Shown in pieces: positions 4,491 through 57,039 of a DNA stretch of 64,000 nt. The stretch comes from Candidatus Hecatella orcuttiae. Lineage in GTDB: Archaea; Thermoproteota; Bathyarchaeia; Hecatellales; Hecatellaceae. Each line of letters starts with the position of its first letter. Within the stretch, counting starts at the first letter, position 1. Made by a program: the position numbers and the translations under genes. The notes beneath the pieces are model-generated. The model saw only the letters and a program-made list of their open reading frames with translations, was not told the origin of the DNA and made no database searches. Location: contig MTLY02000002.1 in the NCBI GenBank assembly GCA_002011035.2, forward strand, positions 32,001 through 96,000, written 5' to 3'.

Positions 4491-5987
4491 TTAGGAGCCC
4501 ATGGCAGGAGTCAGCCCTGAGAGAAGCTGGGAGAGGAAGGGCGCTGCCACGTTGGTGAGGACAGTGGGATAAATGCCGAGGACGACCGCCACCACGGCCA
4601 AGACTAGGATGGGCGCCGTCATCAACCTAGGCCCTTCTTTCGCCTCCTTCAAAGGTTCAGGGGTTCCGCCGAAGAAGACCCGGCGCACCGTCCAGAGGCC
4701 GTAGCCCGCGGTCATGGCGGAGAAAACCACGGCGATGCCCGTCACCCATATACGGGTCAAGTTGGGGGCTGTCACCCCACCGAAGCCTGTTCCTGTGTAG
4801 ATGGAACCTCCGAAGGTGAAGAACTCCCCCCAGAACCCGATGAGGGGCGGGGCTCCCATGAGAGTTAGAAACCCTAGGAGGGTAGCCGTGGCCGAGTAGG
4901 GCATTCTCCCCGCCAGTCCGCCCAGTTCCCGGATGCTCCGGGTGTGGAGGGTGTGGATGAAGATGCCGGCTACCATGAAGAGGATAGCCTTTCCCAAGCC
5001 GTGGCTGACGTAGATGAGCACAGCCCCCGTGAGGCCTAGGGCTGAGAGGGAGACGACGCCGAAGAGCAAGTAGCCCATCTGGCTGATGCTGGAGTAGGCC
5101 AGAAGCCTTTTGATGTCGTCTTGAGCCAAGGCCATGTAGCCGCCGTAGATCATAGTCACCACCGCCAAGACGACCAAGGCCATGACGAACTGCCCATGCC
5201 CTAAAACCATGGGAAAGGCCGTGTAGACGATGCGGATGGCGGCGTAGCCTCCGATACCCACCATGGCCGGAGACAGCAAGGCGCTGATGGGCGTCGGCGC
5301 CTCGGCGTGGGCGTCAGGCAGCCACGTGTGGAGGGGGAAGATGGCCATCTTGACGAAGAGGCCGAGGAGTATGGCGGAGACTATAGCCACAGCTGTGCCG
5401 ACACTGACTCTCTCCATTCCCGCGGCGATGGCGAACACGTCGAAGGTCCCCGCCAAAAACCGGGCGGTCACAATGCCTGCTAGAAGGAACAAGGCTCCTG
5501 CCTCGGTGAACATGAAATATTTGAAGGCAATTTTCTCCCGGGCCCCTGTGCCCCAGACTCCTATGAGAGCCCAAGAGGGGATAAGCATCAGCTCGAAGAA
5601 GACGAAAAAGGCTGCTAGGTTGGTGACCAACACCGTGCCCATCATCCCAGCAGAGTAGAGAAGGTAGAGAGCGAAGTAGGCGTGGAGGTTGCGCTCATGC
5701 TCCATGTAGGAAATAGAGTAGATAGCGATCAAAGCAGCCAACATGGATATGACCAAAGCGAAAGGTGTGCTCAGACCGTCGGCCACCAAGGTGAAATCGC
5801 CCAAATAGCGTCCCCAAGGATAGCTGGCCACTAGGCTGCCGCCCCAACTTCGAAGCTGGAAGAGGATGAAGCCCAGAAGCCCTGTGGTGTAGGTTAGTAC
5901 GGCGAAAGCCAGCCAGCCTGCGTATTTGCCCAGCCTCCCTCCCACGGCAAGGGCTATTGCGGAGAAGGCGATGGGAACCATGACCAC
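4491..5987 (-). CDS. nuoM: Complex I-like antiporter subunit NuoM
   Basis: FFELMLIP, VKMAIFPLHTWLPDAHAEAP and AYSSISQMG motifs; the true start may lie slightly upstream. Confidence 0.88.
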   Translation of the reverse strand: MVMVPIAFSAIALAVGGRLGKYAGWLAFAVLTYTTGLLGFILFQLRSWGGSLVASYPWGRYLGDFTLVADGLSTPFALVISMLAALIAIYSISYMEHERNLHAYFALYLLYSAGMMGTVLVTNLAAFFVFFELMLIPSWALIGVWGTGAREKIAFKYFMFTEAGALFLLAGIVTARFLAGTFDVFAIAAGMERVSVGTAVAIVSAILLGLFVKMAIFPLHTWLPDAHAEAPTPISALLSPAMVGIGGYAAIRIVYTAFPMVLGHGQFVMALVVLAVVTMIYGGYMALAQDDIKRLLAYSSISQMGYLLFGVVSLSALGLTGAVLIYVSHGLGKAILFMVAGIFIHTLHTRSIRELGGLAGRMPYSATATLLGFLTLMGAPPLIGFWGEFFTFGGSIYTGTGFGGVTAPNLTRIWVTGIAVVFSAMTAGYGLWTVRRVFFGGTPEPLKEAKEGPRLMTAPILVLAVVAVVLGIYPTVLTNVAAPFLSQLLSGLTPAMGS

Positions 5988-6023
5988 TTGTAGTAGCAGC
6001 TGATTGGTGTCTATCGTTTCCCT

Positions 6024-8093
6024 TCACCCCATCACTGTTAAGGCCAAGAGGAGGAAGAACACCACGAAGCCGAGGATGATCCCCTCCACATTGTGGGTGA
6101 GAATTCCAGAGTGAGTTTTTCTGAAGCTGTTGGAGAAGCCGGCTGTGGCGTTGGCTAAAACGTAGTTGAACCGGTCGATGACCCCCAGCTCTATTTTCTT
6201 CAACGCCCACATGCACCCTCCGATCATCGGGTAGACGATAGCCTTGTAGAAGAAACGGTTAATGTACCACCTGTTCAACACAAACTGCCTCAACACCGCC
6301 AGCAAACCGTAGCGTTGAAGAAACACCGAAGGCTCCAGCTTCCGCTTTACATAGAGGAAGTAGGCGGGAAGAGCTCCGGCCAGAAGCATGGCCACTGATA
6401 TGCCGGCGGTCACCCAAACAGCTAGCTCATGGGGGAACCCATGAACAGCCACAGCCTCCGAATGGCCTCCGCCTGCGGGGAGAAGCTCTCCCAGATATTC
6501 GTGGAAGACCCCTTCAAACCATCCTTTGACGAAGGGACCCATGACCCCGAAGGCTAGAGTGCCGATGACCAAGGCCAAGAAAGGAATCCACATGACCTTA
6601 GGCGCCTCGTGGACATGGTGGCCGTGGCGTTCTTGCTCCGCGAGGTGGGAGCTCTTAGGGCCGAAGAAGGTTAAACCCAGCATCCTAACGCTGTAGAAGC
6701 TGGTCACGGCCACGGTCACCGCTCCTAGGGCGAAGATCCAATACTGCCCCGCCAGCAGAGGGGCCTCCAGAACCATGTCCTTACTCCAGAAGCCGCTGAA
6801 GAGAAGGGGCACCCCCATGAGGGAAAAGGCGGCTAGGGACATGCACCAGAAGGTAATGGGCATGTACCGCCTGATGCCTCCCATGTGGGTCATAAACCGG
6901 GACTCGCAGGTGTGGATGACGGCCCCCGCGGTGAGAAAGAGGGCTGCCTTAAACATGGCATGACTCATGAGGTGGAAGACTCCGCCCACGTAGCCGACGA
7001 GAAACTCCGCAGTGGAGCCGGCTATGCCCAAGGCCAGCATCATGTAGCCCAGCTGGCTGACCGTGGAGTAGGCCAGCACCTTCTTTATCTCGCTGGAAAC
7101 CATGCCTTGGCTGCCTGCCACAAAGGCGGTGATAGCTCCAACCCAGGCGATGACGTAGAAAAAGGTGATAAGCTCGTTAGCTGCTCCCCCATGCCACACA
7201 GCGGTGTAGAACATGGGGAAAACCCGCCCTACCAAGTAGACACCGGCATTGACCATGGTCGCGGCGTGGATGAGAGCGCTGACCGTGGTAGGCCCTGCCA
7301 TGGCGTCGGGAAGCCACTCCATCAGGGGGAGCTGCGCTGACTTCCCAATAGGGCCTCCGAAGAGGAGGATGGCAGCGGGGATCAGGACGGCTAGGGGCAC
7401 TCGTAGGATGGCGCCTCCCTGAAGCTCCACGAAGTTGAGGGTGCCGGCGAAGGCTAGGAGGAGGAAGGCTCCGAGGAGGAAGAAGAGGTCGCCCATTCTC
7501 GTCGTGATGAAGGCCTTCATGCCGCAGTGGGAGGGCGGGTAGGCTTCAGGGCCTTCCCCAACCCAGCATTTAAGCCAGTCCTCCTTGGAGTCGCGGTGCC
7601 AGAACCCTATGAGGGCGTAGCTGCACAGGCCGACGCCCTCCCAGCCGAAGAGAAGCTGGATGATGTTGTCGGACATCACCAGCAGAAGCATGCTGCCGAT
7701 GAAGAAGTTCATGAAAAACCAGTAGCGAGTCAGGCTGGGGTCGCCGTGCATGTAGCCGAGGGAGTAAACCATGATGAGGAAGCCTATCACCGCGACCACG
7801 TTGGCCATGATGATGCTGAGGGGGTCGACGATGACCCCGGCCATCAGCCGGCTTAAAACCGGAGCGCCCTCCATGACCACCCAGAGAACCTGGTTGTGGA
7901 AGTACTTCCCTTCCCAAAGGTAGGGGATGAGGCTGAGGGTCATAACCATGGCGAGGAAAGAGAAAACAATCGCACCGTAGTCCCTGACTTTGGAGTGAAC
8001 CTTGGCCAACAGAGGAGTTAACACAGCTCCCAGCATGGGGAAAATCCAGCTGAGCCAAGCCGGCCAAACGAAGATTTCGGTGATGTACTCCAT
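6024..8093 (-). CDS. nuoL: Complex I-like antiporter subunit NuoL
   Basis: GWEGVGLCSY, GKSAQLPL..WLPDAMAGPTTVSALIHAATMV and HAMFKA motifs. Confidence 0.92.
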   Translation of the reverse strand: MEYITEIFVWPAWLSWIFPMLGAVLTPLLAKVHSKVRDYGAIVFSFLAMVMTLSLIPYLWEGKYFHNQVLWVVMEGAPVLSRLMAGVIVDPLSIIMANVVAVIGFLIMVYSLGYMHGDPSLTRYWFFMNFFIGSMLLLVMSDNIIQLLFGWEGVGLCSYALIGFWHRDSKEDWLKCWVGEGPEAYPPSHCGMKAFITTRMGDLFFLLGAFLLLAFAGTLNFVELQGGAILRVPLAVLIPAAILLFGGPIGKSAQLPLMEWLPDAMAGPTTVSALIHAATMVNAGVYLVGRVFPMFYTAVWHGGAANELITFFYVIAWVGAITAFVAGSQGMVSSEIKKVLAYSTVSQLGYMMLALGIAGSTAEFLVGYVGGVFHLMSHAMFKAALFLTAGAVIHTCESRFMTHMGGIRRYMPITFWCMSLAAFSLMGVPLLFSGFWSKDMVLEAPLLAGQYWIFALGAVTVAVTSFYSVRMLGLTFFGPKSSHLAEQERHGHHVHEAPKVMWIPFLALVIGTLAFGVMGPFVKGWFEGVFHEYLGELLPAGGGHSEAVAVHGFPHELAVWVTAGISVAMLLAGALPAYFLYVKRKLEPSVFLQRYGLLAVLRQFVLNRWYINRFFYKAIVYPMIGGCMWALKKIELGVIDRFNYVLANATAGFSNSFRKTHSGILTHNVEGIILGFVVFFLLLALTVMG

Positions 8094-8097
8094 ACCT

Positions 8098-9645
8098 TCA
8101 CCCTCCTATCAAAGCATGGGCGGCGCTGTCCGCCAGCTGAATTACAAGGTCAGGCCATATGCCCACCACCACGCAGGCAGCCGCCAGCAGCACGATGGGT
8201 AAAACCATGGTTCCCGGGGCTTCCCTAGCGCCCTCCGCCCTCGTCTTGGGCTTCCGAAACATCACCCTCTGCATGACCCAAAGGTAATAGGCTGCTGCGA
8301 AGACGCTGTTAACCACCACGGCGATGGTCACCCCCACCATGAAAGGGTCCTTGGCCATGTTGAAGCCTGCGAGGATGATGAACAGCTTACTCCAGAAGCC
8401 GCTGAGGGGAGGAACCCCCGCCAAAGTCAGAAGCCCAACGGAGAAAGACGCCCCAGTCCAAGGCATCTTTTTCCCTATCCCCTCCAACTCCGCTAGGTCC
8501 CTGGTCTTGGCTTCGTGGATGAAGCAACCGGAGCAGAGGAAGAGGAGGCCCTTTCCCACAGCGTGGTTGAACACGTGGAACAGCGCCCCCATGATGGCTA
8601 GGCCTGCCACCACCAAGGCGATTTCAGGGGCTGTGGAATAATAATGGGTGAGGGCGTAGGCTCCGATGCCGGCTCCGGTGAGGATGTAGCCGATGTTGAC
8701 GATGCTGGAGTAGGCCAGCAGCCTCTTGATGTCCCTCTGCAGCAGAGCCATGATGTTGGCCACGGTCATGGTGAGGATGCCGAAGAGCATCAGCACCGTT
8801 CCGAAATCGAAGACCAAAGGTGTAAAGGCCACGAACAAAACTCTGTAGATGGCGTAAACACCTACCTTGATGACTACCCCCGACAGCATGGCGCTGATGG
8901 AAGCCGGAGCAGCTGGGTGAGCGTCTGGAAGCCATGTGTGGAAGGGAACCACCGAAGCCGTCACTCCGAAGCCGCAGACGATCATAGTGACCAAAAAGAA
9001 CATGGTGAGAGTGGAAGGACCTGCTTCCTGAAGACCTTGGGCTAGGGCCTCGAAGTTGAGGGTGCCTGTTATGCCGTAGAGAAAGGACATGGCGTAGAGG
9101 AAGAGGAGGGAGCCGAAGGTGCTCATCACCAAGTATTTGAAGCTGGCTTCTATGGGCTCCCACCGGTGCTTCCGGAAGGCTACGAGGACGTAGGCGGAGA
9201 GGGACATAGTCTCCCAGAAGATGAAAAGGTTGAAGAAATCACCCGCGAAAGCCACTCCGATCATGCCAGCCACCATGGCCAAGAGCAAAGCGTAGTACTT
9301 GTCCAAGCCTGAATCCTTCTCCATGTATCGCAGAGAGTAAACAGCCACCATCAGACCCACCCCCACGTAGACGTAAGCCATGTACACGCTTAGAGAATCC
9401 ACAAAGTAGGTGACCCCGAAAGGCGGCCCGTAGGCTTCTAGGTGGTAGACAGCGAAGCCTTCCTCTGAAGCCTTGACCAAAAGGTCCAGCTTAAAAACAT
9501 AGTACAGGGTGGCGGCGAAGGCTCCTATGGAGAAAAGGTCCCTTGCCTTCTCAAACCCGACGGCTTTCCCCAACGCTGTAACAAGCGGCGTTAGAATAGC
9601 TGCGAAGAGAAGAGTCAACACAGGCATCAAGACGAGTAAAGACAC
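8098..9645 (-). CDS. nuoN: Complex I-like antiporter subunit NuoN / MrpD-like
   Basis: EASFKY, PFHTWLPDAHPAAP, IKRLLAYSSI and PPLSGFWSK motifs. Confidence 0.75.
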   Translation of the reverse strand: MSLLVLMPVLTLLFAAILTPLVTALGKAVGFEKARDLFSIGAFAATLYYVFKLDLLVKASEEGFAVYHLEAYGPPFGVTYFVDSLSVYMAYVYVGVGLMVAVYSLRYMEKDSGLDKYYALLLAMVAGMIGVAFAGDFFNLFIFWETMSLSAYVLVAFRKHRWEPIEASFKYLVMSTFGSLLFLYAMSFLYGITGTLNFEALAQGLQEAGPSTLTMFFLVTMIVCGFGVTASVVPFHTWLPDAHPAAPASISAMLSGVVIKVGVYAIYRVLFVAFTPLVFDFGTVLMLFGILTMTVANIMALLQRDIKRLLAYSSIVNIGYILTGAGIGAYALTHYYSTAPEIALVVAGLAIMGALFHVFNHAVGKGLLFLCSGCFIHEAKTRDLAELEGIGKKMPWTGASFSVGLLTLAGVPPLSGFWSKLFIILAGFNMAKDPFMVGVTIAVVVNSVFAAAYYLWVMQRVMFRKPKTRAEGAREAPGTMVLPIVLLAAACVVVGIWPDLVIQLADSAAHALIGG

Positions 9646-9648
9646 AGC

Positions 9649-9969
9649 TTACCACCTCAGCCTCCTCAGTCTTCTGACATCCAAGGTTGCATAATGGCGG
9701 TGGGCGTTGATGACCAGCAGCAGGGCTAAGGTAGCTATGGCCGCCGCAATGACGATGGAGACGATGACCACGCTCTGGGCTAAAGCCTCCACGGCCAGGG
9801 TGGGAGAAAGCTCCGAGCCCAAAGCCACAAAGTTCAGGTGAACAGCTGAGGTTAGAATTTCCACTCCGATGACGATTTTGATCATGTTCCTTTTCACAGC
9901 GATGCAGTAGGCTCCGAGGATGAAAAGGATGGCAGCCGCGGCCAAGTACCAACTCGTTTCTAGGCTCAT
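9649..9969 (-). CDS. nuoK: Complex I-like subunit NuoK
   Basis: 3-TM protein with KRNMIKIVIGVEIL and C-terminal LDVRRLRRLRW. Confidence 0.85.
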   Translation of the reverse strand: MSLETSWYLAAAAILFILGAYCIAVKRNMIKIVIGVEILTSAVHLNFVALGSELSPTLAVEALAQSVVIVSIVIAAAIATLALLLVINAHRHYATLDVRRLRRLRW

Positions 9970-9972
9970 AGG

Positions 9973-10272
9973 CTATTCTTCCTCCTCTTCGGAGATTTCT
10001 TCCTCCACGCCCTCCACGAAGACCTCCTCCTCCGGACCTGCCTCTTCAGTTCTGAAGAGAGCAGCGGCTCCGACGATGGTGACAAAGACCGTCAGAAACA
10101 GGAAGAGGATGTCGAACTCCCGGTAGGTCCAAAGCCAAAGTTGCTCTGGGAGGGGAGAAGGAGGTAGGGTAGGATTGGGGATGATGAAGTAGGAGCCCAT
10201 AAAACTGGCTATGATGACGGTGAAAGCAAGTAGAACGGCTAATCCCACTATCCTACCTGCAAGCGAGTTCAT
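9973..10272 (-). CDS. nuoJ: NuoJ C-terminal half (split nuoJ)
   Basis: LWTYREFDIL...IVGAAAL resembles the last helix of NuoJ; lies between NuoJ-N and NuoK. Confidence 0.65.
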   Translation of the reverse strand: MNSLAGRIVGLAVLLAFTVIIASFMGSYFIIPNPTLPPSPLPEQLWLWTYREFDILFLFLTVFVTIVGAAALFRTEEAGPEEEVFVEGVEEEISEEEEE

Positions 10273-10276
10273 CTTT

Positions 10277-10519
10277 TCACAACTTCTTGACGGTGTGGAA
10301 GGTTACCAGCAACAGGACGACAACGGCTCCCACGTAGATGAGAACCTGCACAGCCGCCACGTAGGGCGCGCCCAAAAGGAAGAAAGCCACAGCCAAAAGG
10401 ATGCTCATGAAAAAGAAGGAAGCAATGGCCTTGGGTATGTTTCGGAACTCAACAGCTAGAAAAGCGCAGCCGATTGTGAGGAGGATGACGGCCATTTCAA
10501 GAAGAGCCAGCGGTTCCAA
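10277..10519 (-). CDS. nuoJ: NuoJ N-terminal half (split nuoJ)
   Basis: LGAPYVAAVQVLIYVGAVVVL signature; likely TTG start at 10519. Confidence 0.8.
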   Translation of the reverse strand: MEPLALLEMAVILLTIGCAFLAVEFRNIPKAIASFFFMSILLAVAFFLLGAPYVAAVQVLIYVGAVVVLLLVTFHTVKKL

Positions 10520-10719
10520 TCTTACACCACAAAGCCTTCGTTTGAAATGTTTTTTATCTAAAAGGAGATGAAGATATAAATTCTTCGCTCCCTTTTTCGG
10601 GAAAATGCAGGCGTATATACAGTTCAAAAGATGTTTACTTTCAAAATTAAAGGATAAACCATAAATGCGACATTAATGTACTATTTTCTCGAGAACAAAC
10701 AAAGGAAAAGGGAAGAGCA

Positions 10720-11082
10720 GTGGCAGACCTTCTGGGCCTAGTGGTGTACATTGTCATCATGCTCCTGTTTCCCATAGGCCTAGTGCTGTCCGGAAAGATA
10801 TTCGGCCCGTCCAATCCCAGTCCCACCAAGAACTTGGCCTTTGAATGTGGACAGGTTCCTCTTGGAGACCCTCGGATAACCTTCAACATTCGATACTATC
10901 CTTACGCCATGATCTACGCGGTCTTCGGGGCCATAGCTATCTTTCTCCTCCTCACCGCCCCTGCCATCATCAGGTTGGGAGGCGAGGTTTCAACTTTCAT
11001 TTCCATCTCTCTCGCTGTGGTGATCCTCGCCTTGGTCAGCGCTGTGACTTCTCTCCGTTCGGCTAGGAGGAGGTTGAGGTGA
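10720..11082 (+). CDS. nuoA: Complex I-like subunit NuoA
   Basis: K..AFECG and YYPYAMIYAVF motifs; 3 TM helices. Confidence 0.88.
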   Translation: MADLLGLVVYIVIMLLFPIGLVLSGKIFGPSNPSPTKNLAFECGQVPLGDPRITFNIRYYPYAMIYAVFGAIAIFLLLTAPAIIRLGGEVSTFISISLAVVILALVSAVTSLRSARRRLR

Positions 11083-11549
11083 CCCTAAGCCCTGTGGCTA
11101 AGGCTAAGGAAACATACACCCTCCTGAAGGATAAAATCCTCAACTGGGGTCGAGCTTGGTCTCTGTGGTCTGTTCACCTTTGCACAGGCTGCTGCAGCCC
11201 TGAGCTGATGGCTGTTTCGTGTTCCCGGTTCGACGCGGAAAGGTTCGGCACTCTGCCCTTCCCTTCTTTAAGGCAGTGTGACCTTCTCTTCGTGTTGGGT
11301 GTGGTTAGCGAGAAAATGGCGAAAAGGGTTAAATTGATCTACGATCAAATGCCTGACCCGAAATATGTCATAGCCTTAGGGGACTGCGCCATCTCCGGAG
11401 GCTTGTGGTGGGACTCCTACTGCGTCGTTCAGGGGATCGATAAGGTGGTCCCTGTGGACGTCTATGTGCCGGGATGCCCCCCAAGGCCGGAAGCCTTCAT
11501 CCAAGGCATTATGATGTTGCAGAAGAAGATCCAAGGGAAAGAAGTTTGA
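11079..11549 (+). CDS. nuoB: Complex I-like subunit NuoB (N2 cluster)
   Basis: Tandem-Cys TGCCSPE, GDCAISGG and VPGCPPRPE motifs. Confidence 0.92.
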   Translation: MTLSPVAKAKETYTLLKDKILNWGRAWSLWSVHLCTGCCSPELMAVSCSRFDAERFGTLPFPSLRQCDLLFVLGVVSEKMAKRVKLIYDQMPDPKYVIALGDCAISGGLWWDSYCVVQGIDKVVPVDVYVPGCPPRPEAFIQGIMMLQKKIQGKEV

Positions 11550-12025
11550 GCGAGGCTGCTGAAAAAGCTGAAGCCATGGTTACTGAGGATGTTAAATCTA
11601 AATTTGGTGATGCTGTTCTCCAAGCTGAAGTCCAGCGGAAAGGCAGAATAAGCATAAAAGTCAATAAAGACCGCCTAGCAGATGTCGCCAGATACCTGAA
11701 GGATAGCTACAACTTTGACCATCTGGCCTCTGTTTCCGGAACCGACTACCCTGACCGGAAGGAGTTCGAAGTCGTCTACCATGTCTGGTCCATTCCCCGG
11801 AAGATTCTGGCAGCCTTAAGAGTTTCCCTGCCCAGAGAAGACCCTCAACTGGACACGCTTATCCCTGTTTGGGAAGCTGCCAATCTTCATGAGAGGGAAA
11901 CCCATGAAATGTTGGGGATAAACTTCGCCGGTCACCCCAACCTTTCCGGGCTATTGCTTCCGGAGGACTGGAAGCAGATGCCTCCCCTGAGAAAAGACTT
12001 CAAACTACCGTCCAAGCCGAGGTAG
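11546..12025 (+). CDS. nuoC: Complex I-like subunit NuoC
   Basis: ERETHEMLGINFAGHP...PPLRKDF motif; TTG start overlapping the nuoB stop. Confidence 0.9.
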   Translation: MSEAAEKAEAMVTEDVKSKFGDAVLQAEVQRKGRISIKVNKDRLADVARYLKDSYNFDHLASVSGTDYPDRKEFEVVYHVWSIPRKILAALRVSLPREDPQLDTLIPVWEAANLHERETHEMLGINFAGHPNLSGLLLPEDWKQMPPLRKDFKLPSKPR

Positions 12026-12035
12026 GTGTGGCTCT

Positions 12036-13115
12036 ATGCCTGTCATGCGTGTGAAATTCGGTCCTCAGCACCCTATCAGCGGCCACCTTTGCCTTGCCCT
12101 TGACGTTGACGGGGATGTTGTGGTCAACATTGAGCCTGACATCGGTTACACGCATCGGGGATTGGAGAAGATAGCTGAAAACCGCAACTACGTTCAAGCG
12201 GTTCCCCCATTGGAGAGAGCTAACATCGTTGACTCGGTCCACATGGTTTTAGGCTATGTGGAGGCGGTGGAGGAGCTCATGGGGGTGGAGGTGCCGGAGA
12301 GGGCGAAGTTCATCCGGGTCATCATGGCTGAGATGAGCAGAATAGCCAGCCACCTCTACTGGCTTTGTTTGATGGCGGTGGCTGTGGGTTTGGAAACAAT
12401 GCTCATGTGGCCCATTAACGACAGGGAACTGCTCCTAGACCTCTTCGAGATGTATACGGGGGCGAGGATAACTCACTCTTTCTTCATCCCCGGAGGGGTT
12501 CGGCGGGACCTTCCTCAAGGCTTTAAAGAGCAAACCTTCAGAGCGCTGAGCTATCTGGAGCAACGGCTGGGCGATTATGACCGAATGCTTTACCAAAGCT
12601 ACACTTTCAAAATAAGGACCCAAGGAGTTGGGAAGCTTAAACCTCAAGAAGCCATAAAGCTGGGGTTGGTTGGCCCTTCTATCAGAGGGTCGGGGGTGAA
12701 GGTGGATGTGCGAAAAGATGAACCTTATGCTGCGTATGACCAGCTGGAGTTCACCGTGCCCACGGGGAAGGTGGGAGACTCCTACGACAGGTCTGTGGTG
12801 AGGCTTAGGGAAATGGAGCAGAGCATCTCCCTCATCCGCCAAGCGCTGGAGAGGCTTCCCAGCGGGCCCATTAAGGCTCCTGCCCCTTCCTCCGCTCCGA
12901 AAGGGGAAACTTATAGCAGAGTGGAGTCGGCTCGGGGGGAGTTGGGCTACTATCTGGTGGGGGACGGAACCACCCGGCCTTACCGTTTGAAGATAAGCAG
13001 TCCCTCTTTTAGAAACCTCCCTGCCATGGGTTATCTATCTAAAAATGTCCCCTTCGCGGACATACCCGTTATACTGTGGAGTCTAGACCTCTGGCCGTTG
13101 GACATGGATAGGTGA
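12036..13115 (+). CDS. nuoD: Complex I-like subunit NuoD (no NiFe-binding cysteines)
   Basis: GPQHP, GYTHRGLEK and ESARGE motifs; C-terminal DMDR; no CxxC motifs. Confidence 0.92.
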   Translation: MPVMRVKFGPQHPISGHLCLALDVDGDVVVNIEPDIGYTHRGLEKIAENRNYVQAVPPLERANIVDSVHMVLGYVEAVEELMGVEVPERAKFIRVIMAEMSRIASHLYWLCLMAVAVGLETMLMWPINDRELLLDLFEMYTGARITHSFFIPGGVRRDLPQGFKEQTFRALSYLEQRLGDYDRMLYQSYTFKIRTQGVGKLKPQEAIKLGLVGPSIRGSGVKVDVRKDEPYAAYDQLEFTVPTGKVGDSYDRSVVRLREMEQSISLIRQALERLPSGPIKAPAPSSAPKGETYSRVESARGELGYYLVGDGTTRPYRLKISSPSFRNLPAMGYLSKNVPFADIPVILWSLDLWPLDMDR

Positions 13116-13121
13116 AAAAGC

Positions 13122-14207
13122 TTGGTGGGGTTGGAGTCTCTGACGTTGCAGCTGTGGCAGCTCTGGCAGAGCGGCTACCTGACGGAGCTCTTCATCAAAG
13201 TCATCATCTTCCCAGGCTTAGTCCACATATCCCTTGTCGTGCTACTGGCTGTGTGGTTTGAGAGAAAAGTAAACGCGAGAATCCATCTTCGAGTAGGACC
13301 CTACCATGTAGGCCCGGTGATGGGCTTTTTCCAGCCTATCGCCGACTTCGTTAAACTGATAGGAAAGGAGCTCATCGTCCCTGAGAAAGCTCATAAGCTC
13401 CTTTACAAGACGGCGCCCATCTCCGCTCTAGCTCTTTCCACGTTGAGCTTCGCTTTCATTCCCTTCGGGGTCATCGGCTCGGAGATGAGTTTACCGTTCA
13501 TTCCCTTCCACCTAAGCCCCGGAGAATACTGGGTTGTCTACTACTCGAACATCAGCCTCCTCATCGTCATCCTGCTCTTCAGCGTGCGCCCTTTCATCAT
13601 CATAGCAGCCGGCTGGGCATGCCGGAGTAAATACTGCACCGTAGGCGCCCTTCGTACAGCTTTTCAGCTTCTCGCCTATGAAGTTCCCCTTCTAGTGGCC
13701 ATCGTCGGCGTCGTCATGGTGGCCGGGTCCTTCGACCTTGTGGCCATAATAGAAAGCCAGTCCTCCATTTGGCATGGAGTCTTTCAGCCTCTCGGCCTCG
13801 CTGTCTTCTTCGTCGCCATGATGGCGGAAGTGTCCCGGAGACCCTTCGACCTACCCCACGCTGAACAGGAATTGGTCTACGGCTGGGCTACGGAGTATCC
13901 CGGCGTCCTCTACGGATGCTTCATGATGGCGGAATACGTTGACCTGTATCTGGGGGCGGTGCTGATGACAGCTCTTTTCTTGGGAGGATGGCTAGGCCCA
14001 GCTTTCCTGCCGCCCATCGCGTGGTTTCTGCTGAAGGCTGGGATCATCGTCTGCATCGTCACCCTCCTCCGAGGAGTGTTCCCCCGGGTGAGAATAGACC
14101 AGCTTCTGGACGCAGGTTGGACGTATCTGATACCTCTGGCTCTTATCCAGGTGCTGATCATCCTAGGCCTCGCTCATGTGGCACCAGGCCTGCTGGGTTT
14201 GGCGTAA
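13122..14207 (+). CDS. nuoH: Complex I-like subunit NuoH
   Basis: ERK..ARIHLRVGP, QPIADFVKL and AEVSRRPFDLPHAEQEL motifs. Confidence 0.92.
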   Translation: MVGLESLTLQLWQLWQSGYLTELFIKVIIFPGLVHISLVVLLAVWFERKVNARIHLRVGPYHVGPVMGFFQPIADFVKLIGKELIVPEKAHKLLYKTAPISALALSTLSFAFIPFGVIGSEMSLPFIPFHLSPGEYWVVYYSNISLLIVILLFSVRPFIIIAAGWACRSKYCTVGALRTAFQLLAYEVPLLVAIVGVVMVAGSFDLVAIIESQSSIWHGVFQPLGLAVFFVAMMAEVSRRPFDLPHAEQELVYGWATEYPGVLYGCFMMAEYVDLYLGAVLMTALFLGGWLGPAFLPPIAWFLLKAGIIVCIVTLLRGVFPRVRIDQLLDAGWTYLIPLALIQVLIILGLAHVAPGLLGLA

Positions 14208-14233
14208 AATGGAAAAAGTAAGGTGAAAAGAAA

Positions 14234-14680
14234 ATGTCTTCCATCGTAAAGCCGTTGAAAGTTGTGCTGGAACATTTCCCAAAAAGAACCTTTACGGTCT
14301 TTCATCCCTATGAAGCTCTAAAGCTACCGGAAAGGTCTCGTGGCGGCATCCAGCTGGACATGGAAAAGTGCACTGGCTGCGGTGTATGCGCCTACATCTG
14401 CCCTAATGTAGCCATAGAACTGGTCACCAGAGGAGAGAAGAGATACCCCAAACTGGATTATGGAAGATGCTGCTTCTGCGCTCTTTGTGTGGACTACTGC
14501 CCTAGGAAGGCGCTGAAAACCACACCGGTACATGAGCTGGCGGAGTTCAGCAGAGCGGAGCTGGAATATCCCCCTGAACGCCTCGCTCAACCTCCGCAGA
14601 TAACCAAACCTAAGCCCGCCCCTCGCCGAAAAATTGTTTCCATAAAAAAGATCGACCAAAGGGGAGTTTCACACCACTAA
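14234..14680 (+). CDS. nuoI: Complex I-like subunit NuoI (2x[4Fe-4S])
   Basis: CTGCGVCAYICP and CCFCALCVDYCP motifs. Confidence 0.9.
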   Translation: MSSIVKPLKVVLEHFPKRTFTVFHPYEALKLPERSRGGIQLDMEKCTGCGVCAYICPNVAIELVTRGEKRYPKLDYGRCCFCALCVDYCPRKALKTTPVHELAEFSRAELEYPPERLAQPPQITKPKPAPRRKIVSIKKIDQRGVSHH

Positions 14681-21295: not shown

Positions 21296-21432
21296 GAACG
21301 CTCAACCCCTGCTGTTAAAACGAAACTTTTTCTTCAACCTCTGTAAAAAATCCTTCCATCCTGCTGGGCGAGCAGCACATCAACCTTATAGGGCCTTGTT
21401 TCCGATGGTTGAAGTTGAGGGGCTGCAGCCTA

Positions 21433-22284
21433 ATGGGGGAGACAGGAACCTACAAGGCTAAGCTTCAACATCTGCTTTTCCCCTTGTTAACCCTCTCCAT
21501 GGCGATGGCTTTCGCCGCCCTTCTCTCGGCTGCTTATACTTCGCCGCCTCTGAACCCTCTGCCTTTTGAAGGCGGCCTCTCCGCCTCTGCTTACAATGCT
21601 CTGTACTACGCAGCCTTGATAGCGGGGATGGGGCTGGTCTTCTACCTTCTCACCAAGGCCGGTATGAGAAAAATTTTGAAGACTCTCATCCTCGGAGTCT
21701 ACGCCCTCCTAGTTTTCGCTCTTGCCTCCATATATTCTGCTGCAGGCTTCTGGATAGCCGGTTTGAGTCCACCTTTCAGCTCCTACCTTGGGGGGTTAGG
21801 CTCGGTGGCAGTTGTTTTTCTGGCCCTCTACGCTGTTTTCGTCAGGGGCGGAGTCTGGAGGTCCATCGTCATGTTTCTGGTGGCCGCAGGTTTAGGGGCT
21901 CTCCTAGGCTTTACCATTCCAAGCCTCAGCGTCTACGCCATTCTCATCGCTCTCTCCGTCTACGATGTTTTCGCCGTGTTCAAGGGGCCTCTGGGGAGAA
22001 TGCCTTGGACGGCGGAGCCAGAGGTTTTCACAGGTCTCATTCTCACCCACGACAATTTGAAAATAGGGCTGGGGGACCTAGCCTTCTACTCTATGCTGGC
22101 ATCCCACATCTACCTTCTCCAAGGCTTTTACCCCTTCCTAGCGGCTTCCTTGGGGATACTTCTAGGCGTCTATCTTTCCCTCAAACTTTTGGAGCGGAGA
22201 AGCATGGTTCCGGGACTGCCTTTAGCCGTCGGCCTAGGGATAATCTTCACCCAGCTCCTCAACTTTCTCCAACCCCTTATTTGA
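21433..22284 (+). CDS. Presenilin-like GxGD intramembrane aspartyl protease
   Basis: Multi-TM protein with YD, GLGDLAFYS and PGLP (PAL-equivalent) motifs. Confidence 0.8.
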   Translation: MGETGTYKAKLQHLLFPLLTLSMAMAFAALLSAAYTSPPLNPLPFEGGLSASAYNALYYAALIAGMGLVFYLLTKAGMRKILKTLILGVYALLVFALASIYSAAGFWIAGLSPPFSSYLGGLGSVAVVFLALYAVFVRGGVWRSIVMFLVAAGLGALLGFTIPSLSVYAILIALSVYDVFAVFKGPLGRMPWTAEPEVFTGLILTHDNLKIGLGDLAFYSMLASHIYLLQGFYPFLAASLGILLGVYLSLKLLERRSMVPGLPLAVGLGIIFTQLLNFLQPLI

Positions 22285-22447
22285 AAATCCATCAGTTTAA
22301 GGGACTGGGGGAAAAGCTTCCTGTTCCTAAGTGATATGGACGGACTGCGCTAGGCTACTAGAAAAATATCAGAATATTGATAACATGCTGCACGCATAGT
22401 AAATTATAAATATATATTCCAAAATAATATAACTAGCGTGATAAATA

Positions 22448-22555
22448 ATGACCGTACATCAAATCATAGACGTAGTATATATTCTGTACGCGGTAGGCGT
22501 AGCGACATTTATGCTTCTCTATGTTCGCAAAATCACGCAGAAAGGAGGGGGGTAA
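22448..22555 (+). CDS. Unannotated 35-aa single-TM protein, probable small subunit (IIa-like) of the downstream heme-copper enzyme
   Basis: MTVHQIIDVVYILYAVGVATFMLLYVRKITQKGGG; first ORF after an AT-rich promoter; its 3' end contains the GGAGG RBS of subunit II. Confidence 0.65.
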   Translation: MTVHQIIDVVYILYAVGVATFMLLYVRKITQKGGG

Positions 22556-22559
22556 AAAG

Positions 22560-22982
22560 GTGGAGAAAGCGGAAAAAAGATGGCTGGTCATCTTAGTTGC
22601 CGTAGCAGTGGTCTTTAACGCTACAACGCTTTCTCCTCTAGTCCCTTGGCAAAACTGGCTTTTCTGGTCTCCGCCTACTCCAGTGGAAGAATTCCATATA
22701 AGGATGAAAAATTACACTTTCCAACTTCCCCCGGATGGGATAACAGTCCAAGTAGGTGAGCCTGTTAGGTTTATCGTGACGTCGGAGGATGTAACCTATG
22801 GTTTCGGAGTCTTCAGAGAGGATGGGAGCATCGTCTTCCAGATGCAGGTGCTCCCCGGGTATCGCAATTCGATCCTGTGGGTGTTCGATGAACCCGGCGA
22901 CTACACCATCCGTTCCACGGAGTACTCCGGCCCATACCATCCCCACATGGTCTTACCGAATGCCATTCGCGTGGTGGAGTGA
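22560..22982 (+). CDS. Heme-copper oxidase superfamily subunit II (cupredoxin) lacking CuA ligands
   Basis: One TM helix plus cupredoxin; DVTYGF and STEYSGPYHPHM replace DVxH and CxExCxxxHxxM. Confidence 0.85.
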   Translation: MEKAEKRWLVILVAVAVVFNATTLSPLVPWQNWLFWSPPTPVEEFHIRMKNYTFQLPPDGITVQVGEPVRFIVTSEDVTYGFGVFREDGSIVFQMQVLPGYRNSILWVFDEPGDYTIRSTEYSGPYHPHMVLPNAIRVVE

Positions 22983-22997
22983 GGTGGAGGCTTTCCC

Positions 22998-24587
22998 ATG
23001 ACCTATGAAAGGCTTACTCTGCGTTATGCGATAATCTCAACACTGTTCCTAGGCCTAGCTGGCATTGAAGGTTTGCTGATGAGGGTGCAACTGGTGAACA
23101 TTCCGTTGTTCGACTTCGAACACTACTACGCCATGCTGACCGTTCACCCGTTTGTGGGAATCTACGGATGGGCTTACTTGGGGGTGATAGGCGCCTTTTA
23201 CTATCTCGTCCCTAAACTCCTTAACAAACCCCTCTACAGCCTCAAGCTGGCCGACGTGAACCTGTGGACCTTCGTCGCAGGAGTGCTCATCGTTTGGTCT
23301 TCCGGGCTTCTCACCAAGTTCGGCTCCCTCTACACCCTCTACTGGCCGCTGCCTGTGGAGAGGTTCCCTCCCAACAGCGTAGTCTTTTTCTCCTCAGGCC
23401 TACTGCTCATAGAACTGTCGGTGTTGCTGTTCATCTTCAACATCTTCGCCACCGTTTTCAGCAGAAAAGGGGAGAGTTCGGGGAAAACCTTCAAAAGTCT
23501 TCTCTTATCCGCCTTCGGGCTTGAGGGTTTGTCCCAACGGTTCAGCATGGCCCTCAGCAAGTTGGGAGTAAAGTCTTCCAAGCGTATGTTGAACGGAGGC
23601 AGCGGCTCCAATCCTCAACCCATGCCTGTGTTTGTTGTGGCGGTGATGCGGGGAAGCGTCGACGCTGTTCTCAACGCGCTGGTTCTAGCTGGGGCAGGAG
23701 GCTTGCTGTTGGCTTTCAGCCTGCCGGCGCTTTTAGCCGGTGTGATGCTAAACCCTCTCATCGTCGACCCACTAGTCTACAAGAACGTGTTCTGGTGGGG
23801 TTTGGATATGATTGCCGACGGCGATGTTTTGATATGGGTGGCTGGAGCCTTGTATCTTCTCGCTCCTTTACTCACAAACCGGAAACTTTACGCTGAAGAT
23901 GTGGTGAGGAAGGTTATCCTAGCAGACCTTCTCATCTCCATGGGCGTGTGGAGCCACCATCTGATGTCCGACCTTCCCCAGCCTTCGTTTATGAGGCTGA
24001 TCTCAGGGCAGTTCATAACTTGGGGTGAGTTCTTCACCATGGGGCTGACGTTTTTCGCCGTCCTGATGACCGTCTGGCTGGCTCGGCCGGTTAAGCTAAC
24101 TATGCCTCTGAAATTCATGCTGGGGGGTATTTTCGGCTTCATGCTTGGAGGAGGTTCAGGGCTGCTTCAAGCCAACTACGCTTTGAACCTAGTCATGCAC
24201 AACACCCAGTGGGTTCCCGGATTCCACATTCACCAGATGGTGCTGGTGGGGTTAGGCGGCGTCATCTTCGCTGTCATCTACGCTCTTCTGCCCATGTTGA
24301 CAGGCACTGAGTTGAAGAGTCAGAAGCTGAGCAACCTTCACTTCTGGCTTTGGATGATCGGAGGCGTAGGTATGGCCTTTTCCATGGGGCTGGCGTGGAC
24401 GCCGGGTATGCTGAGGAGAACCCTCTACCCTGACACTACCATCTACCTGCCCTATATGAGCTCAGCCATGTTCTTTGGAATACTGCTCGCCATCGGATTC
24501 CTAGCCTTCATCATAAACCTCGTCCATACCTACGGGCTGCGAACACTGGTAGGACTCTTCATACCTCAGAGGAAAACCAAACCCTAA
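22998..24587 (+). CDS. Heme-copper oxidase superfamily subunit I, non-canonical (gNOR-like putative NO reductase)
   Basis: About 12 TM helices; LTVHP, WSHH, HNTQW..FHIH and GMLRR present; helix VI reads FWWGLDMIADG instead of W..HPxVY. Confidence 0.8.
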   Translation: MTYERLTLRYAIISTLFLGLAGIEGLLMRVQLVNIPLFDFEHYYAMLTVHPFVGIYGWAYLGVIGAFYYLVPKLLNKPLYSLKLADVNLWTFVAGVLIVWSSGLLTKFGSLYTLYWPLPVERFPPNSVVFFSSGLLLIELSVLLFIFNIFATVFSRKGESSGKTFKSLLLSAFGLEGLSQRFSMALSKLGVKSSKRMLNGGSGSNPQPMPVFVVAVMRGSVDAVLNALVLAGAGGLLLAFSLPALLAGVMLNPLIVDPLVYKNVFWWGLDMIADGDVLIWVAGALYLLAPLLTNRKLYAEDVVRKVILADLLISMGVWSHHLMSDLPQPSFMRLISGQFITWGEFFTMGLTFFAVLMTVWLARPVKLTMPLKFMLGGIFGFMLGGGSGLLQANYALNLVMHNTQWVPGFHIHQMVLVGLGGVIFAVIYALLPMLTGTELKSQKLSNLHFWLWMIGGVGMAFSMGLAWTPGMLRRTLYPDTTIYLPYMSSAMFFGILLAIGFLAFIINLVHTYGLRTLVGLFIPQRKTKP

Positions 24588-53000: not shown

Positions 53001-53774
53001 TTAGCTTACTCTCCTCCCACCCCATTCCTGCCTGTAATGGCACTCATAGCAGTTTTCACCGAATCTTTCCGCCCATTCCTCATGGCAATTGATACACACA
53101 TCAACACGGGGTTTTATCTTCTCAAAGCCGCCTTCAGTGTGGCAAAGATCACAGTCGATTTTAGAGTGAGGCGTTTCTGTGTGGAGATACGTGATCACAT
53201 GACATCGGTCACATTCGGCGAAGTTTAAGTTGCCATATTCATCAGGCAAATGCCCTATAGGTGAACCCCAATCTTCCCGAGGATGGCATTTGTAACAATT
53301 GGTGTCCATCATGTATTCTGGAAGATCCTCATGGCAGTGTATGCAAACATCCACGGTAGGCACCTCGATTCCAGGTCCATGCATACCATGGCATTGTCTG
53401 CAGGCGATCTCCGAATGAGCCTTAACCTCGTGAAGACTGTTTCGGAGATGACATTCTTCGCAGATGGCTGATATCTGAGGATTGGTAAAGTTTATGAGAA
53501 CAGGAACCTCGTATATGCCTAGAACATATCTTCCTACCATGATCACCGACTGGGGTCCGCTTTCATGGCACAGATGACACTCGACGAAACTTTGTCCGTG
53601 AACTGATATCTCCCAGTCCTGAACAAAAGGCTCCATTATATGACATGCGCTGCAGTAGCGTGGATTTGAGATGATGCCGGTCCCTATCTGGTAAGTTAAA
53701 ACCGTAAAAGTGAGAAAGCTGAAAACTAGAATCATAACTAGGGCAGTGATCCCTATTTTCGCCACTCGACGCAA
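53001..53774 (-). CDS. Membrane-anchored decaheme cytochrome c (NapC/NirT-like N-terminus)
   Basis: N-terminal TM helix and 10 CxxCH motifs. Confidence 0.9.
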   Translation of the reverse strand: MRRVAKIGITALVMILVFSFLTFTVLTYQIGTGIISNPRYCSACHIMEPFVQDWEISVHGQSFVECHLCHESGPQSVIMVGRYVLGIYEVPVLINFTNPQISAICEECHLRNSLHEVKAHSEIACRQCHGMHGPGIEVPTVDVCIHCHEDLPEYMMDTNCYKCHPREDWGSPIGHLPDEYGNLNFAECDRCHVITYLHTETPHSKIDCDLCHTEGGFEKIKPRVDVCINCHEEWAERFGENCYECHYRQEWGGRRVS

Positions 53775-53787
53775 TTGAACCCCCCGG

Positions 53788-54495
53788 TTACAATTTCTTC
53801 AATACTGTTGTGCAACATCTATCTCCGTCGATAATGCAGTCTTCGAGTTTTACGTCATAGTTTCCAAGGCATCTACTAATGGATCGAAAATAGGCAGCGT
53901 GACCTTCGCAGAGGGTCTTGGGGCTGAGCTTCGAGATTTCGTAGAAGATGCAGTTGAAAATTTTTATCACCAAGTCCCCCTCAGGCGTTCTAGTTATCGA
54001 AGGATAACAACCCATTTTTTCCAGTTCGCTGAGCACATGAGTGCAGAATTTCTCCTCGTTCCATTGCTGAATTCGATGCTGAAGGCTAAGGTTTCTCATC
54101 ATGTTCTCCCCCATTTTTTCTCCAATCTCCCGGAGGAGAGTCGCTGCATATTTTTCACCTTTCTTATCAATAAGACTTTCCAGCAATAATTGAGCCAGCA
54201 GTTGGTACTGACGCTGGGGGAAACCTAGATTCATATATCTGTTTGCAATTTTATAATACTGTTTGGGTCTGCCTGGGCTGCCTCTTTCCTCCAAAAAGGA
54301 CTCTACTAAACCTGCGTTTTCCAAGATTCTCATATGGTGGCGGAGGGTTATGGTTTTGAGGTTAGTCTTTCTCGAAAGTTCATCCAAGTCTAAAGGTCCA
54401 CAAGTTACAAGAAGGTCTAATATAAATCTTCTAGGTTTGATGGAAAGAGCCTTATAGGCTTCTTCGTCTTTCAGGTTTGAATTTGTTGAGAACAA
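53788..54495 (-). CDS. ArsR-type HTH regulator with a Cys-rich C-terminal sensor domain (SufR/V4R-like)
   Basis: LRHHMRILE.AGLV, GRPKQYY, FPQRQY.LLA, NCIF, LCEGH and CIIDGDRCC motifs. Confidence 0.75.
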   Translation of the reverse strand: MFSTNSNLKDEEAYKALSIKPRRFILDLLVTCGPLDLDELSRKTNLKTITLRHHMRILENAGLVESFLEERGSPGRPKQYYKIANRYMNLGFPQRQYQLLAQLLLESLIDKKGEKYAATLLREIGEKMGENMMRNLSLQHRIQQWNEEKFCTHVLSELEKMGCYPSITRTPEGDLVIKIFNCIFYEISKLSPKTLCEGHAAYFRSISRCLGNYDVKLEDCIIDGDRCCTTVLKKL

Positions 54496-54755
54496 ATACT
54501 CACAACATATTCTATTGAAGCCTGCTTCTTTTATTTTTTTCTCTTTAATTATATATATGGATAATATAATATTTATTTAAATTACAAATGAAAGAAAAAT
54601 AATTATTAAGCGGAAATATCAAGTTCACCTCGAGCTTAACTCCCGTGCCTCAGAGGATACGGTAGGTTTAAGTTGTTTTCGAAGATAGCAATAGAATATA
54701 TCAACACATGAGTTGAGAACAAAATCTTTAGAGACTAAGGGAACAGTGTTTTCCA

Positions 54756-55475
54756 TTGAAAGAACACACACCAGTTGTTATCGAGCACCTCGCCAAGCGC
54801 TACGGCTTTAGATATGCGCTCCTAGATGTTACGTTGAGCGTGGGCCGGGGAGAAGTTTTTGGCCTCCTCGGTCCCAACGGCGCAGGCAAAAGCACACTTT
54901 TGAAAGTGCTTGCCACACTGGTGTCTCCATCCGGCGGCTCTGTACTAATAGACGGCCTCAGCTTGAAGGATAGGAAGGTGGAACTCCGGAGGAGGATAGG
55001 CTACCTAGGCCACGAGCCTCTTCTTTACAGGGACCTAACAGGTGAGGAGAATTTGAAGTTCTACTATAAGTTCTACCATTCTTCGCCTCCAGAGTACGTT
55101 CAGGAAAAATTGGATGAGGTATTTGAGCTTTTGAGGATAGGGGGCTGGCGGCATGAACCTGTCAGAAACCTTTCCAGAGGATTTAAGAAGAGGTTCGACT
55201 TTGCCAGAGCCATCATTCATGATCCTGAACTTCTGCTTTTCGACGAACCTTTTTCAGGCCTTGACATGGAAAGCCTAGAGGTCGCCCGTGAATTTGTGCG
55301 AAGCATGGAAGGGGAAAAGACTATCATCATCTCCACCCATAACATCGAAGAAGCCAAGGAGCTTTGCAACAAGGCAGCACTCCTAGCAAAAGGGCGACTT
55401 ATCCGCTTGTTGGAGGCCGGCGATATAGACGAGGTAAGCCTCAAAGACGCCTTTAAGGGAGGAGCCGCCCGTTGA
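54756..55475 (+). CDS. ccmA: Heme exporter ABC ATPase CcmA
   Basis: GPNGAGKST, YLGHEPLLY.DLT..ENL, LSRG and DEPFSGLD motifs; overlaps ccmB. Confidence 0.85.
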   Translation: MKEHTPVVIEHLAKRYGFRYALLDVTLSVGRGEVFGLLGPNGAGKSTLLKVLATLVSPSGGSVLIDGLSLKDRKVELRRRIGYLGHEPLLYRDLTGEENLKFYYKFYHSSPPEYVQEKLDEVFELLRIGGWRHEPVRNLSRGFKKRFDFARAIIHDPELLLFDEPFSGLDMESLEVAREFVRSMEGEKTIIISTHNIEEAKELCNKAALLAKGRLIRLLEAGDIDEVSLKDAFKGGAAR

Positions 55476-56164: not shown

Positions 56165-56204
56165 AGCTGAAAGTTTCCACTGGAGAGACAGTTGGCGAGA
56201 CGGT

Positions 56205-56339: not shown

Positions 56340-56341
56340 TT

Positions 56342-57037: not shown

Positions 57038-57039
57038 TT

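Follow-up and report, generated by a model that had tools for sequence, protein, structure and literature searches.

A two-gene operon of the archaeon Candidatus Hecatella orcuttiae encodes a heme-copper oxidoreductase (HCO) of the gNOR family, in which one aspartate takes the place of an active-site metal histidine, a second takes the place of the tyrosine that is cross-linked in oxidases, and the cupredoxin subunit lacks the residues of the CuA site. The operon lies in a 64,000-nucleotide stretch of the Bathyarchaeia contig MTLY02000002.1 (positions 32,001 to 96,000; hereafter the window), in which co-directional genes encode subunit II and then subunit I (Table 1). An original prediction, made from the DNA letters, had described the pair as a non-canonical, gNOR-like oxidase homologue. 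We find that the departure of the active site is real; gNOR itself, its diagnostic features and its occurrence in archaea have already been published, and the pattern of conserved residues may have been as well, in the supplement of PMC11214002. The window copy adds little to what can be said of gNOR chemistry, and its local value is for the physiology of Bathyarchaeia.

All statements on the literature refer to excerpts of the papers cited and, for Murali et al. (2024, PNAS, PMC11214002), of its supplement. According to that paper, gNOR is the first HCO family in which an active-site His is replaced, by Asp; its other hallmarks are the absence of the active-site Tyr, a cupredoxin subunit without CuA residues, kinship with the B family and possible oxidation of quinol. 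The paper counts 156 GTDB genomes with gNOR, from both Bacteria and Archaea, and places the family mainly in sulfidic settings. Cultured holders in its table include Sulfurimonas denitrificans, Persephonella marina, Tenuifilum thalassicum and Nocardioides sp. GCF_000015265.1, and its gNOR reference sequences (Dataset S2) are OGW14262.1, CBE68178.1, OGC04573.1, OGC10325.1, OFY63238.1 and OQY19783.1. The family is attributed to Sievert et al. 2008 and Hemp & Gennis 2008 (PMC8756737, PMC6094997). The residue at the Tyr position is tabulated as Asn in sNOR (CuANor) and Gln in eNOR, and gNOR is entered in the same table with ‘D’ (Appendix 2 table, PMC8756737), and a gNOR is named in Methylomirabilis, where its role is said to remain to be shown (PMC6094997).

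Two aspartates in the active site of subunit I

Subunit I matches Pfam COX1 with E=1.9e-62, and in HMMER comparisons with all PDB chains the best solved relative of both subunits is the B-type ba3 oxidase of Thermus. NCBIfam oxidase models gave sub-threshold matches only, and cbb3 matches are limited to the N-terminal ∼100–150 residues. The AlphaFold2 model of subunit I, made from a 22-row alignment, is all-helical (predicted local distance difference test 77.1, predicted template modeling score 0.81), and Foldseek aligns it with subunit I chains of bo3/aa3 oxidases at a template modeling score of about 0.7. The predicted model confirms the heme-copper oxidoreductase fold and does not resolve the subfamily; the fold comparison was rejected as a subfamily test, as A-type bo3/aa3 chains rank first and families are not discriminated.

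As had been predicted, subunit I keeps the heme histidines and the His-His pair, with the motifs LTVHP (H50), WSHH (H320, H321) and FHIH (H410, H412) all present; by homology, His50 and His412 are retained as low-spin heme ligands and His410 as the high-spin ligand. Helix VI reads FWWGLDMIADG and pairs with FWWTGHPIVYF of ba3 in the comparison with PDB chains, such that His233 becomes Asp270 and Tyr237 becomes Asp274. MAFFT gives the same register when the closest representatives outside gNOR are aligned, so that two alignments agree with the earlier statement that helix VI has neither the metal His nor the cross-linking Tyr. If the protein were instead an ordinary cytochrome oxidase, its His and Tyr would have to have been missed through misalignment, and MAFFT alignment with distant A-family sequences does shift the helix-VI register by 4–5 residues. 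However, this shift is harmless to the claim that the His is lost, because residues 255–295 hold no His at all, under any register; misalignment is refuted by the subunit I sequence itself, and we regard it as next to impossible. The active-site Tyr thus appears to be absent, with no helix-VI His left for a cross-link, and the second active-site metal position is predicted to consist of Asp270, His320 and His321.

These residues do not vary among homologues. In a set of 22 homologues picked without regard to motif, every sequence has Asp270, Asp274 and the five His. They are likewise invariant (His50, Asp270, Asp274, His320-His321, His410 and His412) in 86 of 86 subunit I rows, although within this set the invariance of the stretches used for retrieval, Asp270 included, is true by construction: 80 loci were retrieved by the patterns [FY]WWGLDM[IV] and [VI]S[ML][GF]VWSHH and then filtered on WWGLDM. 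The 86 archaeal and bacterial sequences share 93 invariant positions. Independent support for the Asp substitutions comes from the motif-free set of 22 sequences, from the survey of the class and from a profile search of 1.84 billion representatives (both below).

A remodelled CuA site in subunit II

Subunit II scores 19.9 bits against Pfam COX2, below the 22-bit cut-off, and its top PDB matches are subunit II of Thermus ba3 (E about 2e-08, HMMER). The comparison with Thermus thermophilus ba3 (PDB 1EHK/1XME) brings out what was kept and what was lost. The two enzymes share the heme ligands, the His-His pair and a cupredoxin subunit II anchored by one helix. Where ba3 carries His233-Tyr237 and a full CuA site (His114, Cys149, Cys153, His157, Met160), the window pair has Asp270, Asp274, Tyr93, Ser132 and Ser136 at the corresponding places. 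As predicted, then, Tyr and two Ser replace a CuA His and both Cys, with E, H and M present: in the alignment Cys149 becomes Ser132, Gln151 becomes Glu134 and Cys153 becomes Ser136, and two CuA ligands are kept, His157 as His140 and Met160 as Met143. A subunit II without Cys therefore has no CuA.

In 78 of 80 related loci the gene just upstream of subunit I encodes a homologue of subunit II, and in the other two loci subunit I begins at the contig edge. These loci were not chosen on their subunit II sequence. Ser132, Glu134 and Ser136 are found in all 79 subunit II sequences, and His140 and Met143 in 78 of them. The site had been called destroyed, which is correct for the His and Cys ligands, but the site as a whole has been remodelled to an invariant Tyr/Ser/Glu/Ser/His/Met set. 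Since the replacement residues are invariant in 78–79 of 79 sequences, we argue that the former CuA site was remodelled under constraint and did not decay. Moreover, the organism can make CuA, because two cupredoxins encoded in another operon of the same genome carry the canonical CuA motifs CSETCGALHPFM and CSVFCSEGHQSM.

The loss of canonical ligands from both subunits and the sporadic occurrence of the gene in its lineage might suggest that the pair is what remains of a B-type oxidase that has decayed or lost its activity. We consider such a relic highly improbable, as the same replacement residues recur without exception in Archaea and Bacteria, neither reading frame is broken and gene order is kept in nearly all related loci. 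Indeed, the 93 invariant positions of subunit I, the invariant replacements in subunit II and the canonical CuA motifs elsewhere in the genome argue that the enzyme is functional and not decayed.

A CuA-less cupredoxin subunit II is also found in the cytochrome bo3 quinol oxidase of Escherichia coli, an analogy drawn by Murali et al. (PMC11214002). Unlike the window enzyme, bo3 is an A-family O2 reductase with a His-Tyr cofactor, and, in a further contrast with bo3, the lost CuA ligand positions of gNOR hold an invariant replacement set and show no drift.

A further residue of subunit II, Glu18 (codon 22572–22574, motif AEKRW), immediately ahead of the membrane anchor, is kept in at least 90% of 79 sequences and aligns, in a low-scoring HMMER segment, with the Glu of AYEKGW in ba3 subunit II. 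We take this Glu of ba3 to be the entrance of its K-type proton path, and gNOR may retain part of a proton input route via Glu18.

Family assignment and distribution

We assigned the pair to gNOR because all testable defining features of the family are present. Subunit I is an HCO subunit with the heme ligands kept; Asp270 stands for the active-site metal His (ba3 His233, and the GHP(V/I)VY histidine of the closest relatives); there is no cross-linking Tyr, Asp274 being at the Tyr237 position; subunit II is a cupredoxin without CuA residues; and a grouping with published gNORs is shown indirectly, as the window protein falls in a 91-row clade with the JdFR-56 (L023) and DUEL01 (L028) loci, from genomes that are scored gNOR=1, NOR=1 in the sd08 table of PMC11214002. 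The nearest non-gNOR clusters are B-type. Compared with published gNORs, the pair has the same Asp for His, missing Tyr, CuA-less cupredoxin, B-family kinship and two-gene operon, and differs in no defining feature, although the window copy sits on its own branch. Thus every sequence-level hallmark in PMC11214002 agrees with the gNOR identity proposed at the outset.

Other families differ from the pair in their defining features. B-family O2 reductases have a three-His CuB, His-Tyr and CuA, which the pair lacks. cNOR and qNOR, with which it would share its proposed reaction and a carboxylate at the non-heme metal site, have three His and a Glu at FeB, a cytochrome c or fused subunit II and C-family kinship, whereas the window enzyme has two His and an Asp, B-family kinship and a cupredoxin subunit. 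sNOR, bNOR and eNOR keep all three active-site His, with Asn at the Tyr position in sNOR and Gln in eNOR; here both positions are Asp.

The statement that gNOR is described mainly from bacteria did not hold. Murali et al. report it from Bacteria and Archaea, and the archaeal holders in the GNOR sheet of their supplement are Bathyarchaeia, Methanomethylicia, Caldarchaeales, Conexivisphaerales and Geothermarchaeales, with one Bathyarchaeia genome listed in the sd08 GNOR sheet (PMC11214002). A gNOR in an archaeon, even in Bathyarchaeia, is therefore not new, and a literature search, judged largely by title, found no paper devoted to a Bathyarchaeia gNOR-type enzyme. The suspicion that automated annotation would mislabel the gene was justified: homologues that bear a name are labelled ‘cbb3-type cytochrome c oxidase subunit I’ or ‘cytochrome c oxidase subunit 1’, and a pipeline label of cytochrome c oxidase on a gNOR would wrongly suggest aerobic respiration.

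Of 8000 candidates scored in a word-indexed search, 2658 proteins had E≤0.001, and the best 120 of these are 50–88% identical to subunit I (best database match 88%). A scan of GTDB species genomes gave 126 relatives; the 80 that were kept comprise 15 that are archaeal by record title, six of these being titled Bathyarchaeia or Bathyarchaeota (66–69% identity), and 65 from Chloroflexota at about 50% identity. The profile search of 1.84 billion 50%-identity representatives yielded 47 proteins at E≤1e-30. Among 18 full-length rows aligned, WWGLD is limited to the two top-scoring ones (P0004, P0126), which argues that the gNOR family is compact; GHP(V/I)VY is found in 8 of the 16 others. Two proteins near gNOR in this search differ in other ways: P0152 reads WWGLHSYVNQ, a gNOR-like setting with the His kept, Asn at the Tyr position and Tyr for the high-spin heme His, while P0156 has no helix-VI His and has H-W-Q-H in place of HH. 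They may represent intermediate or further divergent families.

In a tree built with IQ-TREE (LG+G4, SH-aLRT) from 96 rows with 5 outgroup rows, leaving out L100, L106 and L107 as own or partial copies, the window subunit I belongs to an archaeal set of 21 rows (support 99), beside Bathyarchaeia of another family (f26) and on its own branch of 0.33; it is at most 72% identical to any row. The Chloroflexota rows form one clade, and subunit I of the Bathyarchaeia loci L001–L003, L005 and L006 is identical to that of L095–L099. A strong gNOR match (E≤6e-56) is present in 13 of 401 Bathyarchaeia genomes sampled, including the window genome. The 12 other holders all belong to f26, and none of the 13 other genomes of the window genome's own family (14 genomes) has a match; the weaker matches in the class that were examined (12 open reading frames, ORFs) are ordinary HCOs reading FGHPEVY or YGHN. 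gNOR is sporadic in Bathyarchaeia, and the pattern suggests lateral acquisition within Archaea.

A second, divergent Bathyarchaeia gNOR clade (L101–L105, f26) branches apart, with scores of about 650–670 versus about 880–895 bits, and one f26 genome (G157) has two full-length gNOR copies. The gNOR of L011, on a contig titled Methanomassiliicoccales, is 68% identical and groups with the window and Bathyarchaeia clade; either the gene moved between archaeal phyla or the contig was binned wrongly.

Proposed function and genomic setting

We think it somewhat probable that the pair forms a two-subunit, membrane-bound gNOR-type enzyme, fed by quinol and with an iron site, that reduces NO to N2O in a scavenging role. 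Non-heme Fe(II) is classically bound by a 2-His-1-carboxylate triad, and for this reason the site would be expected to hold non-heme iron and not copper. Electrons would come from membrane quinol, since neither CuA nor a cytochrome c domain is present, and two NO would be reduced to N2O. The likely role would be scavenging or detoxifying NO released by neighbors, by abiotic nitrite chemistry or, as a by-product, by a Nar-like molybdoenzyme; this is likelier than a full denitrification step because no NirK or NirS was found and co-occurrence with nir genes is poor. The link to NO is supported by the argument of Murali et al., which combines the missing Tyr with the NOR activity that an engineered 2-His-1-Glu iron center gives to myoglobin (PMC11214002, citing Lin 2010), and by hemerythrin, Crp/Fnr and UbiA-like neighbors; the quinol route is supported by a complex-I-like operon and a MenA-like prenyltransferase.

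The neighbors were counted at 81 loci with flanks of up to 6 kb, so the counts are lower bounds. A hemerythrin-domain gene lies beside the operon at 24 loci (5 archaeal), a Crp/Fnr regulator at 17, a small ferredoxin at 15, a UbiA/heme-O-synthase-like gene at 11 and an HTH_10 regulator at 7, all archaeal. None of the five is adjacent to the operon in the window; a hemerythrin of 42% identity is encoded elsewhere in the window genome.

Hemerythrin and Crp/Fnr neighbors fit O2 sensing as well as NO sensing, and would also suit a quinol oxidase variant that scavenges O2 or peroxide in a strict anaerobe, using two-electron chemistry without a His-Tyr cofactor. In the window genome (1.75 Mb, 3 contigs, 97.1% complete) a single PF00115 match marks gNOR as the sole heme-copper enzyme, and cytochrome bd was not found; moreover, the holders are mostly anaerobes (Anaerolineae, Bacteroidales, Bathyarchaeia), and most gNOR-only genomes in the published table are without nitrite reductases. 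Nevertheless, we consider O2 or peroxide an unlikely substrate, because the three O2-reductase families characterised so far all rely on the cross-linked His-Tyr (PMC11214002), whereas here both residues are Asp and helix VI is without His, and because other Bathyarchaeia carry canonical GHPEVY oxidases for O2.

Several observations weigh against quinol-dependent NO reduction. The excerpts of PMC11214002 and PMC6094997 do not show NO activity for any gNOR, and the Fig. 1 legend of the former lists completely conserved proton channels in eNOR, bNOR, sNOR and nNOR, with gNOR not listed. By our own count of the GNOR sheet (PMC11214002), nirK or nirS occurs in 44 of the 147 rows covered, 31 of which also have cNOR or qNOR (30) or eNOR (1), and where gNOR is the sole NOR a nir gene is found in only 10 of 90 rows. 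The original prediction had proposed a search of the genome for nirK, nirS and nosZ. The first two gave no match in the 97.1%-complete genome, which hence has no dedicated NO source; among the 12 other Bathyarchaeia holders nirK occurs in 2, and none has a close homologue of the Nar-like subunit. A quinone pool is not established, as the futalosine marker MqnA was not found in the genome and the MenA-like prenyltransferase falls below all cut-offs. NuoH occurs in 36 of 41 relatives, so the Nuo-like complex belongs to the lineage itself and has no particular tie to gNOR. Finally, a heme O synthase match (E≤1e-20) is found in 7 of 13 family relatives, 3 of them above cut-off, in which no HCO was detected.

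The poor co-occurrence with nir genes also bears on the possibility that the enzyme reduces N2O, nitrite, hydroxylamine or a sulfur or selenium oxyanion, its carboxylate-rich site being tuned to the substrate or to sulfide tolerance. gNORs are found mainly in sulfidic settings, and their active site is unlike that of every assayed NOR (PMC11214002). Even so, this is quite unlikely in our judgment, since no neighbor or precedent favors a particular substrate and the characterised enzymes of the HCO superfamily reduce O2 or NO (PMC11214002).

A bolder proposal, which we hold to be rather unlikely, is that the invariant Tyr93/Ser132/Glu134/Ser136/His140/Met143 set and the 2-His/2-Asp site, with the likewise invariant Glu344, form a new cofactor arrangement. 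Subunit II might, for example, hold a mononuclear metal or act as a proton/quinol relay that feeds the carboxylate-rich iron site. In this genome, with no other terminal heme enzyme, the result would be a chain from the Nuo-like complex through quinone to gNOR, with NO or a different oxidant as the source of conserved energy. Replacement of an active-site His is reported for no heme-copper family but gNOR (PMC11214002), and a tractable member could reveal how NO, or another substrate, is reduced at a 2-His-carboxylate heme/non-heme site.

The complex-I-like operon is split into two divergent arms: the minus strand encodes three antiporter-like subunits together with NuoK-like and NuoJ-like ones, and the plus strand carries NuoA, B, C, D, H and I-like genes. 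We saw no NuoEFG genes in it. The proximity of this operon to gNOR was rejected as a functional link, since NuoH is so common in relatives and since Nuo genes are missing from the top 25 ORF clusters when those of the 81 loci are ranked by how widely they are shared. Similarly, the heme O synthase of the window genome, which scores above the NCBIfam cut-off (258.9 versus 246 bits) and is 45% identical to the UbiA gene after gNOR in L011, was rejected as a marker of a working gNOR, because it is found in relatives without any HCO (those with heme-O-synthase-like matches are G001, G004, G005, G009, G010, G011 and G013); the prenyltransferase may have another role in this lineage.

The genome encodes five molybdopterin enzymes, none reaching NarG or NapA cut-offs. 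A 1154-residue subunit of the type-II dimethyl sulfoxide-reductase family is encoded together with NarH-like and NarJ-like genes, a NapH/MauN-like Fe-S membrane protein and the two CuA cupredoxins. This Nar-like large subunit scores 185 bits against a NarG cut-off of 1084, and no homologue was found at E≤1e-50 in 40 relatives or in the 12 other gNOR-holding Bathyarchaeia. For nosZ, a PF18764 search of the genome found nothing, and the positive controls were equally silent. A CuA-motif regular expression run over all ORFs of at least 60 residues picked out four, of 133, 135, 215 and 657 residues; in the longest the motif is N-terminal (position 122). This gives weak evidence that none of the four is NosZ-like.

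A cytochrome c maturation (Ccm) system I and several multiheme cytochromes are encoded in and just past the window (Table 1), and constitute unusual equipment for this Bathyarchaeia family. The multiheme cytochromes were rejected as nitrite reductases, with NrfA-like signals of 58.6 and 30.6 bits against a cut-off of 595. CcmF, the Nar-like subunit and gNOR are each found in the window genome alone among 41 genomes, and the combination of gNOR, Ccm and multiheme cytochromes, and Nar-like operon points to an acquired anaerobic respiratory capacity.

Table 1. Coordinates of the gNOR operon, its functional residues and other features of the window and its contig
Feature	Position	Strand	Description or basis
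Upstream intergenic spacer	22335..22520	+	AT-rich, 185 nt; read from sequence
gNOR subunit II	22521..22982	+	ORF from ATG, 153 aa; one N-terminal transmembrane helix and a cupredoxin domain without CuA
Tyr93 codon	22797..22799	+	In place of a CuA His (ba3 His114); motif DVTYGF; Tyr in 79/79 subunit II sequences
Remodelled CuA loop	22914..22949	+	S132-T-E134-Y-S136-G-P-Y-H140-P-H-M143, STEYSGPYHPHM (132–143); ba3 alignment
gNOR subunit I	22998..24587	+	ORF, 529 aa; heme-copper oxidoreductase catalytic subunit
His50 codon	23145..23147	+	Low-spin heme ligand by homology; motif LTVHP; aligns with conserved helix-II His of other HCOs
Asp270-Met-Ile-Ala-Asp274	23805..23819	+	Motif FWWGLDMIADG (266–276); Asp270 for helix-VI CuB His, Asp274 for cross-linked Tyr
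His320-His321 codons	23955..23960	+	Two retained active-site metal ligands; motif WSHH, alignments
His410-Ile-His412	24225..24233	+	High-spin (410) and low-spin (412) heme ligands by homology; motif FHIH; aligns with H-x-H of other HCOs
Complex-I-like operon	4491–14680	both	Two divergent arms; gene content
Ccm system I	53001–64000		Region includes the multiheme cytochromes; CcmA, CcmB 54756–56164; CcmC, H, F, E 56342–61141
10-heme NrfH-like protein	53001–53774		Beside Ccm system
Cytochrome b561-type membrane protein	61324–62415		Beside Ccm system
17-heme cytochrome c	62328 onward		Beside Ccm system
7-heme cytochrome	contig 2: 96266–98149		Coiled-coil, membrane-anchored; just past window
Nar-like operon and two small intact-CuA cupredoxins	contig 2: 160980–169208		Outside window (locus L134 4980–13209)

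Subunit II has an alternative start codon, GTG at 22560, with GGAGGGGGG 7 nt upstream, and this GTG may be the true start. Subunit I starts 15 nt past the subunit II stop and is preceded by GGTGGAGG. In the upstream spacer, AAATTATAAATATATATT around 22400–22420 is a putative archaeal promoter; a sigma-70 promoter scan of the spacer, with a model unsuited to archaea, was not above shuffled expectation. Directly upstream of the operon, at 21409–22284 (+), lies a homologue of the presenilin family of intramembrane aspartyl proteases (Pfam Presenilin E=1.3e-11), which is not conserved beside gNOR at other loci, and a tRNA-Gly lies downstream of the operon at 24709.

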